This document shows positions 3,820 through 4,283 of a DNA stretch of 7,979 bases, piece by piece. The stretch's first letter is position 1; each line of letters starts with the position of its first letter. The notes beneath the pieces were generated by a model. The model had not been told where the DNA came from. It worked only from the letters and a program-made list of their open reading frames with translations, and did not search any database. The stretch is taken from the IMG/VR virus record IMGVR_UViG_2526164652_000007. One strand, written 5' to 3'. The position numbers were made by a program, and so were the translations under genes. This DNA comes from a virus. Its lineage: Duplodnaviria; Heunggongvirae; Uroviricota; Caudoviricetes.

Positions 3820-3956
3820 TATTCATTCTTCCAGATTCCTTCCGGCAGAGCCTTATACTGAAATATACCTGGCTCAGGATATTGTTGAAAATATTATATA
3901 TTTGTCAAAAATAAAAGTTCTGTTAAGTATTGATTGAGTATTTGTTATACGGTCTA

Positions 3957-4283
3957 ATGTTTTTTTCAGCATTAAGTATTTATCATTCATATGGTGTGGG
4001 TAGAGTGAATATTGATGAGGCGTCGGGGTGTTTCATCCTTAGGCAGCGTATTGATATAGTCAATGCAGCACGAGCAAAGGCCTTCAGCCGTTTGACAGTT
4101 TTGTTCTGTACTCCTGATCGTCTTTCGGGAAGAGACGTTATTATTCTGAATAGTGATGCTATACAGAGGGTTTGCGATGAGTTCATGGTTGCTAATTCAG
4201 AATTATTTGCTCTTGTTCAGGAGTACAACAGAATAGCCAGGACCTGTGGTATGGATGAACTTCGGATTACTCATCTGGGGTAG
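3957..4283 (+). CDS. hypothetical protein (ORF A; 108 aa from ATG 3957, 117 aa if the TTG at 3930 is used); first gene of the cargo cassette
   Basis: Open frame 3930-4283 with stop TAG 4281-4283. No convincing SD before any candidate start (TTG 3930, ATG 3957, GTG 3996/4005). Hydrophobic N-terminus (YLLYGLMFFSALSIY). No family recognised. Confidence 0.45.
   Translation: MFFSALSIYHSYGVGRVNIDEASGCFILRQRIDIVNAARAKAFSRLTVLFCTPDRLSGRDVIILNSDAIQRVCDEFMVANSELFALVQEYNRIARTCGMDELRITHLG

Follow-up and report, generated by a model that had tools for sequence, protein, structure and literature searches.

A small gene of an orphan phage family occupies the Shiga toxin gene slot of a lambdoid prophage

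The DNA examined here, called the window, is a stretch of 7,979 nucleotides from the viral record IMGVR_UViG_2526164652_000007 (Caudoviricetes), and its content, read from the sequence, is that of the late regulatory region of a lambdoid prophage (Table 1). ORF A, the open reading frame (ORF) in question, is the first gene after two phage transfer RNA (tRNA) genes and is followed by a small DUF3927 gene, a small RNA (sRNA) of the STnc100 family and the convergent gene iraM. The comparisons described below indicate that ORF A is a genuine protein-coding gene, that translation starts at GTG 4005 to give a product of 92 residues, and that the gene belongs to a cassette lying where related phages carry the Shiga toxin (Stx) genes. 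Taken jointly, these statements on the gene, its start and its slot are held with high confidence.

Table 1. Positions of the genes and other features discussed, in window coordinates
Feature	Position	Strand	Remarks
DUF968-type gene	1168-2217		
RusA gene	2230-2586		
Q antiterminator gene	2601-3422		Pfam Antiterm, E 6e-55
Terminator-like hairpin	3503-3522	+	Just 3' of Q; terminator scan
Phage tRNA, anticodon CAT	3566-3641	+	Met by ARAGORN, Ile by the Prokaryotic Genome Annotation Pipeline (PGAP); upstream context
Phage tRNA-Arg (TCT)	3743-3819	+	Left boundary of the cargo slot
Cargo cassette (leader, ORF A and DUF3927 gene), 659 bp	3828-4486	+	Occupies the stx2AB slot
In-frame hydrophobic extension, 25 codons	3930-4004	+	Most likely an untranslated 5' leader; 29% GC
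Antisense ORF, 67 residues	3983-4186	-	Spurious
ORF A proper, 92-residue coding sequence	4005-4283	+	GTG start, TAG stop; phrog_2873; predicted soluble two-helix hairpin
DUF3927/TciB-like small membrane protein gene	4319-4450	+	Pfam DUF3927, E 5.6e-26; phrog_1470, E 2.6e-11; annotated by PGAP in L001
STnc100-family sRNA	4516-4705	+	Rfam RF02076, 132 bits; right boundary of the cargo slot
Strong terminator ending the STnc100 sRNA	4675-4696		Terminator scan
iraM	4731-5066		Convergent to ORF A; NCBIfam NF007393, E 4e-48
DUF1737 gene	After iraM, before the IS3-family element		
IS3-family insertion sequence (IS) element	5717-7084 region		orfA 6782-7084 and orfB 5928-6746, both on the - strand

A preliminary description of this DNA reported a frame open for 117 codons, which is present from TTG 3930 to TAG 4283, and four candidate starts (TTG 3930, ATG 3957, GTG 3996 and GTG 4005), all of which exist together with an additional TTG 3942. 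It rightly found no strong Shine-Dalgarno sequence at any of the four, for which the calculated free energies are -0.4, -2.4, +0.9 and -4.5 kcal/mol, respectively; GTG 4005 has the best of them, yet about 25% of all window positions reach -4 kcal/mol or lower. The first 20 residues of the 117-residue reading are moderately hydrophobic, with a Kyte-Doolittle mean of 1.1 and a best 19-residue window of 1.21, and a membrane helix is usually expected to reach roughly 1.6 on this scale. The GC content is above that of convergent iraM (34.2%), as had been estimated by hand, being 46.7% over 4081-4140 and 44.1% over the core from GTG 4005 to the stop codon.

A 401-bp query over the ORF matches 1,314 of 5,426 complete Escherichia coli genomes, with at least 95% identity in 1,185 of them, and the diverged E. 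coli lineages L004/L011 (80 genomes) and L005 (51 genomes) encode homologues with 61% and 63% amino-acid identity to ORF A, respectively. The window, L004 and L005 types differ at 28-33% of bases and align gap-free over exactly 92 codons. The ratio of nonsynonymous to synonymous substitution rates (dN/dS) among these three types is 0.26-0.27, the excess of synonymous changes has a Fisher p of about 1e-6, and the differences in the core are distributed over codon positions 1, 2 and 3 as approximately 24:23:44. Across all 8 diverged lineages examined, the + frame is the only one of the six that is free of stop codons. The 74 near-identical loci sampled, which comprise 27 haplotypes, all keep the 279-nt core intact and free of frame-disrupting indels; the core's variable sites number 10 (3.6%), compared with 18 in the 185 nt upstream and 9-10% in the flanks (Fisher p 0.009), and these 10 comprise 6 synonymous third-position changes and 4 conservative replacements. 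No match makes ORF A a fragment of a larger gene, all relatives being stand-alone proteins of 91-95 residues. These comparative data indicate that ORF A is a genuine gene.

The start had been called ambiguous, a view that does not survive comparison with the homologues, which places it at GTG 4005. The conserved protein sequence starts at N27-I28-D29-E30 of the 117-residue reading, corresponding to the GTG-AAT-ATT-GAT-GA motif common to all E. coli lineages, and the homologous GTG or ATG start is kept in all lineages. Relatives with 33-43% identity from Citrobacter, Salmonella, plasmids and metagenomes are likewise 91-95 residues long and start no more than 3 residues from the position of GTG 4005. 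In L004, L005, L014, L095, L098 and L100/L101 (six of the 10 other loci, representing five lineages), an in-frame stop codon lies 1-10 codons 5' of the equivalent start, five codons in the case of L004, and leaves no alternative start. The L005 type, which PGAP annotates as a GTG-start protein of 92 residues, has AGGAG four bases 5' of the GTG.

The preliminary description also placed ORF A first among the cargo genes after the tRNAs, at the position of the toxin A subunit gene in Stx phages, and comparison with the Stx2a phage WGPS8 (L097) bears this out. Homology to WGPS8 spans window positions 3526-3827, containing the tRNA block, and 4487-5179; it breaks at 3827 and resumes at 4487, and the non-homologous gap of L097 that corresponds to this break (1799-3167) holds stx2A and stx2B. 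In WGPS8, stx2A begins 92 nt past the last tRNA-Arg, and an STnc100-family sRNA follows stx2B as it follows the cassette of the window. Because homology flanks the gap on both sides and stx2AB lies between, the segment 3828-4486 is, on this comparison, an alternative cassette in the stx slot between tRNA-Arg and the STnc100 sRNA. The two cassettes share slot and orientation, both being preceded by Q, the late terminator and phage tRNAs and followed by the sRNA, but there is no sequence or family relationship between stxAB and ORF A. The window cassette carries two small genes (92 and about 43 residues) in 659 bp, whereas stxAB encodes an AB5 toxin in 1,369 bp, and a signal peptide is unsupported for ORF A. 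The iraM-containing segment 4487-5179 is about 70% identical to L097 3168-3856, which lies 3' of stx2B and is unannotated in the WGPS8 record; Stx2 phages may carry an iraM-like remnant or gene there.

ORF A had been described as an unknown, which is true of its function but not of its family, as it matches phrog_2873 (PHROGs v4, unknown function) with an E value of 1e-68 and 229 bits over residues 10-117 of the longer reading and profile positions 1-108. Homologues with 33-63% identity match the same profile, those of 92 residues covering positions 17-108, and phrog_4827 gives a weak match to ORF A. The profile extends over 108 positions because an upstream ATG was taken as the start of its members, and the conserved part begins at profile position 17, which corresponds to GTG 4005. 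A HMMER search of 1.84 billion protein cluster representatives found 19 relatives, all short, and a second, wider profile search contributed nothing beyond hypothetical proteins from E. coli, Shigella, the Citrobacter freundii complex and Salmonella; neither search returned a multi-domain or named relative. The viral contigs of IMG/VR hold 195 confirmed family matches (tblastn, E<=1e-3), and scans of IMG/VR with the queries P0028, P0029 and P0031 gave no match. Among 50,697 phage records including P1, tblastn with ORF A (E<=0.01) and P0027 (E<=1) found mEp460_ev081 only. As far as these searches reach, phrog_2873 is a very small orphan family confined to prophages and plasmids of Enterobacteriaceae.

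An AlphaFold2 model with a predicted local distance difference test score of 84.4 and a predicted template modelling score of 0.70 places helices at residues 3-35 and 50-81, which form an antiparallel hairpin joined by a short beta-turn with a conserved FCTPDRxSG motif. The mean hydropathy of the core is 0.16, and, judged from hydropathy, the model and the comparison of lineages, it has neither a conserved transmembrane helix nor a signal peptide, the hydrophobic stretch being lineage-specific and upstream of the conserved start. The product is thus predicted to be a soluble two-helix hairpin. The modelled hairpin has no specific structural relative, and among PDB sequences a profile search turned up nothing better than E 0.61. 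The Pfam and NCBIfam scans were empty for ORF A and family members, also with respect to the ribosome-inactivating protein domain of Shiga toxin A; a sub-threshold match to RHIM (E 0.094) is regarded as noise. The TerB domain (PF05099) is not matched by ORF A or 8 family members, and the hidden Markov models of anti-phage defence proteins in PADLOC-DB gave no match at E<=1 for ORF A, P0027 or P0031. Literature searches on TciA/TciB, DUF3927 and STnc100 found nothing concerning ORF A. The closest known systems include small helical-hairpin protein binders such as the anti-activator TraM and prefoldin beta, with the neighbouring anti-adaptor IraM as a functional analogy.

Family members recur in a similar setting in other lineages, oriented like Q and placed between it and the lysis genes. 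In the window, L011, L099 and L104, the gene follows Q in the same orientation, Q being of the DUF1133 type in the last two, and in L005, L095 and L104 it precedes lysis genes. The L011 homologue comes after Q and genes for PemK, a methyltransferase and an AraC-type regulator, and the L005 homologue precedes a holin gene; in L095, a Citrobacter-type locus with 39% identity, the homologue is followed by TerB/TciA, DUF3927/TciB, holin and endolysin genes. Five lineages have a phage tRNA gene 0.2-2.2 kb upstream, encoding tRNA-Arg in the window and tRNA-Thr in L095, L099, L100/L101 and L104, and L007 has a tRNA pair about 3.5 kb upstream. The lineage L100/L101, with 34% identity (gene at 4001-4276 and 6001-6276, respectively), is intact on 27 E. 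coli and Shigella plasmids of PLSDB, mostly from pigs, which carry Rep3; there it lies next to a PapB/usher/K88-like fimbrial operon and has a tRNA-Thr(UGU) gene about 580 nt upstream, suggesting that a phage block of tRNA and gene has moved to plasmids. PGAP annotates this plasmid homologue as hypothetical; in the L004 type, the homologue carries no PGAP annotation in any of the 25 genomes sampled among the 80 carriers. In the L004/L011 lineage, which is associated with Shiga toxin-producing E. coli, the homologue stands directly after genes for a DNA methyltransferase and a 241-residue AraC-type (HTH_18) regulator (for example, L011 3186-3911), and it precedes a gene for a SASA-family esterase, which we take to be of the nanS-p type found downstream of stx in Stx phages. 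An L005-type homologue with 62% identity (L014 1039-1314) lies on a contig labelled 'MAG: Bacillota bacterium', which is most likely a mis-binned enterobacterial prophage contig.

That ORF A is no gene but a chance open frame in an intergenic leader is very improbable. Three observations weigh against a gene, namely the absence of a PGAP annotation at ORF A in L001 and in all 36 near-identical genomes sampled, the weak Shine-Dalgarno sequence, and the lack of any match in Pfam, NCBIfam, PADLOC and the PDB. The comparative data already contradict the chance-frame view, however, in that the frame is under purifying selection, keeps its length down to 33% identity, is exclusively open and shows reduced polymorphism, and PGAP does annotate the orthologues of the L005 and plasmid types. 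An even fainter chance attaches to the antisense ORF 3983-4186, which is sometimes picked by RAST-style callers, as the real gene. The L005 type carries an antisense ORF of 95 residues, the mEp460_ev081 record has a short minus-strand coding sequence annotated at this site, and the antisense frame itself has a dN/dS of 0.22-0.38; since it shares third codon positions with the sense frame, similar values arise on both strands, and selection alone cannot identify the strand. Stop codons can, and they number 2, 2, 0, 0, 6, 7, 5 and 4 in the antisense frame of the 8 lineages, six of which are thus interrupted. In addition, a sense-synonymous single-nucleotide polymorphism creates a premature antisense stop in 2 haplotypes, the antisense ORF has no family match, and it runs counter to the late operon; on the stop counts, the polymorphism-made stop and the missing family match it was rejected as spurious. 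A long form of the ORF A product, translated from TTG 3930 or ATG 3957 into 117 or 108 residues with a membrane anchor or signal peptide at the N-terminus, is also unlikely, though less so than the two preceding views. The points that speak for it, and so against a start at GTG 4005, are that 72 of the 74 near-identical loci keep the frame open from 3930, that the gene callers behind phrog_2873 and clusters P0001-P0005 took upstream starts, that some alleles (P0014, P0015) allow the L004-type leader to be read as a peptide of weak similarity, and that the upstream frames of L099 and L104 are open as well. Against this, the extension is missing from the lineages with the upstream stop codon, and its hydrophobicity and the Shine-Dalgarno energies at 3930 and 3957 are low, as given above. 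The extension and the L004 leader are homologous at the DNA level only, with indels that total 7 nt and are not multiples of three, and among haplotypes the extension varies by 1 synonymous and 5 nonsynonymous changes and, in one near-identical haplotype, by a 1-nt deletion, a pattern indicating that these 25 codons evolve neutrally. A conserved peptide encoded by the leader was rejected, since a hand count over 20 ungapped codons against L004 gave differences of 9:8:10 by codon position, unlike the third-position excess of the core. In the P0017 lineage, an IS element abuts the start and replaces the leader, so that the N-terminal extension there is IS sequence, and the core is intact. The extension has a GC content of 29%, and its F, L, I and Y codons follow from this AT-rich composition alone, such codons being T-rich. 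The hydrophobic N-terminus is therefore almost certainly an untranslated leader, so that of the three options given in the preliminary description the membrane anchor and the signal peptide fall away and non-coding sequence, in the form of an AT-rich, lineage-specific 5' leader, stands.

With ORF A taken as a 92-residue gene behind such a leader, a further alternative concerns its neighbour, the DUF3927 gene 35 nt 3' of it. The two may form one module, such as a soluble regulator or antidote with a membrane effector, related to the tci region of phage P1. Such a module seems improbable, if somewhat less so than the long form of ORF A. Both genes lie on the same strand of one 659-bp cassette, and in L095 the homologue is again followed by a TerB-like TciA and a DUF3927 TciB. 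However, of the few ORFs tested downstream of the L004/L011-type homologue none matches DUF3927, no DUF3927 gene is called near the homologue in L005, L104 and the plasmid lineage, and phages with tciA/tciB at 84-93% identity, P1 included, give no tblastn match to the family at E<=1. Since linkage is inconsistent across lineages, an obligatory pairing was rejected, and a fixed partnership with DUF3927 is unlikely on present gene orders. The order in P1 is tRNA-Thr, tciA, tciB, tciC and tRNA-Ile, which resembles the present locus in its TciB-like gene, in the homologue-TciA-TciB order of L095 and in the linkage to phage tRNAs. It differs in that ORF A is not TciA, as it has no TerB match and the TerB gene of L095 is a separate ORF. 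The P1 proteins TciC (35 residues) and Upl (63 residues) were rejected as counterparts of ORF A on size and on the lack of a tblastn match to P1. The Tci functions themselves are assigned 'by homology' only (PMC9603915).

Several further features of the window deserve mention. The hairpin 3' of Q is interpreted as tR' of the late promoter region on account of its position and of a 24-nt match between the hairpin region and WGPS8 immediately 3' of the phage's own Q. For the tRNA with anticodon CAT, Stx phage records also name Ile (ileZ type), unlike ARAGORN; the naming differs because it depends on lysidine modification, which cannot be read from the sequence. The true start of the DUF3927 gene is probably further downstream than the annotated GTG 4319, because the PHROG match of its protein begins only at residue 12; alongside this, GTG 4319 is GTT in 6 of the 27 haplotypes, and codon 8 is a stop in one haplotype. 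Across the STnc100 region, the PGAP annotation of L001 shows a pseudo 'hypothetical protein' on the minus strand, and L004 has two tandem copies of STnc100-family sRNA (3139-3335 and 3399-3588) 3' of its ORF A homologue. The IS3-family element sits where near-identical prophages such as L001 run on into holin and lysis genes, and the ORF 5717-5887 resembles a truncated holin N-terminus; on these two grounds this prophage is probably lysis-defective. A second IS3-type orfA lies at 387-725, and close to the right end of the window a sok antitoxin RNA at 7537-7708 on the + strand (Rfam RF01794, 99.8 bits) points to a hok/sok locus.

The best explanation as a whole, which is considered probable, is that ORF A is an accessory ('moron') gene of a lambdoid prophage, carried by a cassette in the stx slot, whose translation from GTG 4005 behind an untranslated leader would yield a soluble 92-residue hairpin protein of an orphan family. 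In lambdoid phages, stx is expressed on induction by Q-modified RNA polymerase from pR'. By analogy with this, and given the shared slot, ORF A would be transcribed mainly from the Q-antiterminated late promoter pR' upon induction, and it may also be driven by a promoter of its own, since a plasmid-borne lineage exists outside any late operon. Its size, its predicted fold and the lack of catalytic or membrane features lead to the tentative proposal that the product may work as a binder of a host or phage protein and not as an enzyme, a membrane protein or a secreted protein. More doubtful is the idea that phrog_2873 is a lysogenic-conversion or host-takeover factor, a small helical binder that would inactivate a specific host protein, be it a regulator or a protein of cell division or the stress response, or else a defence system belonging to the host or to a rival phage.

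In kind, ORF A is ordinary, a phage moron of an uncharacterised orphan family that is widespread and under-annotated. The corrected gene model (4005-4283, 92 residues, GTG start) describes a gene conserved in about 1,185 of 5,426 complete E. coli genomes and yet left without RefSeq annotation in 36 of the 36 sampled. Lambdoid prophages exchange defined cassettes at the stx slot, the interval between the phage tRNAs and the STnc100 sRNA, and the ORF A cassette is its widespread non-toxin occupant. If the host-takeover idea is true, selection on the gene's own merits would account for its persistence on conjugative plasmids, away from any late operon of a phage, as well as in the stx slot, where about one fifth of complete E. 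coli genomes carry it, and if its product manipulates a host regulator or defence system, ORF A would be a common and overlooked lysogenic-conversion factor.
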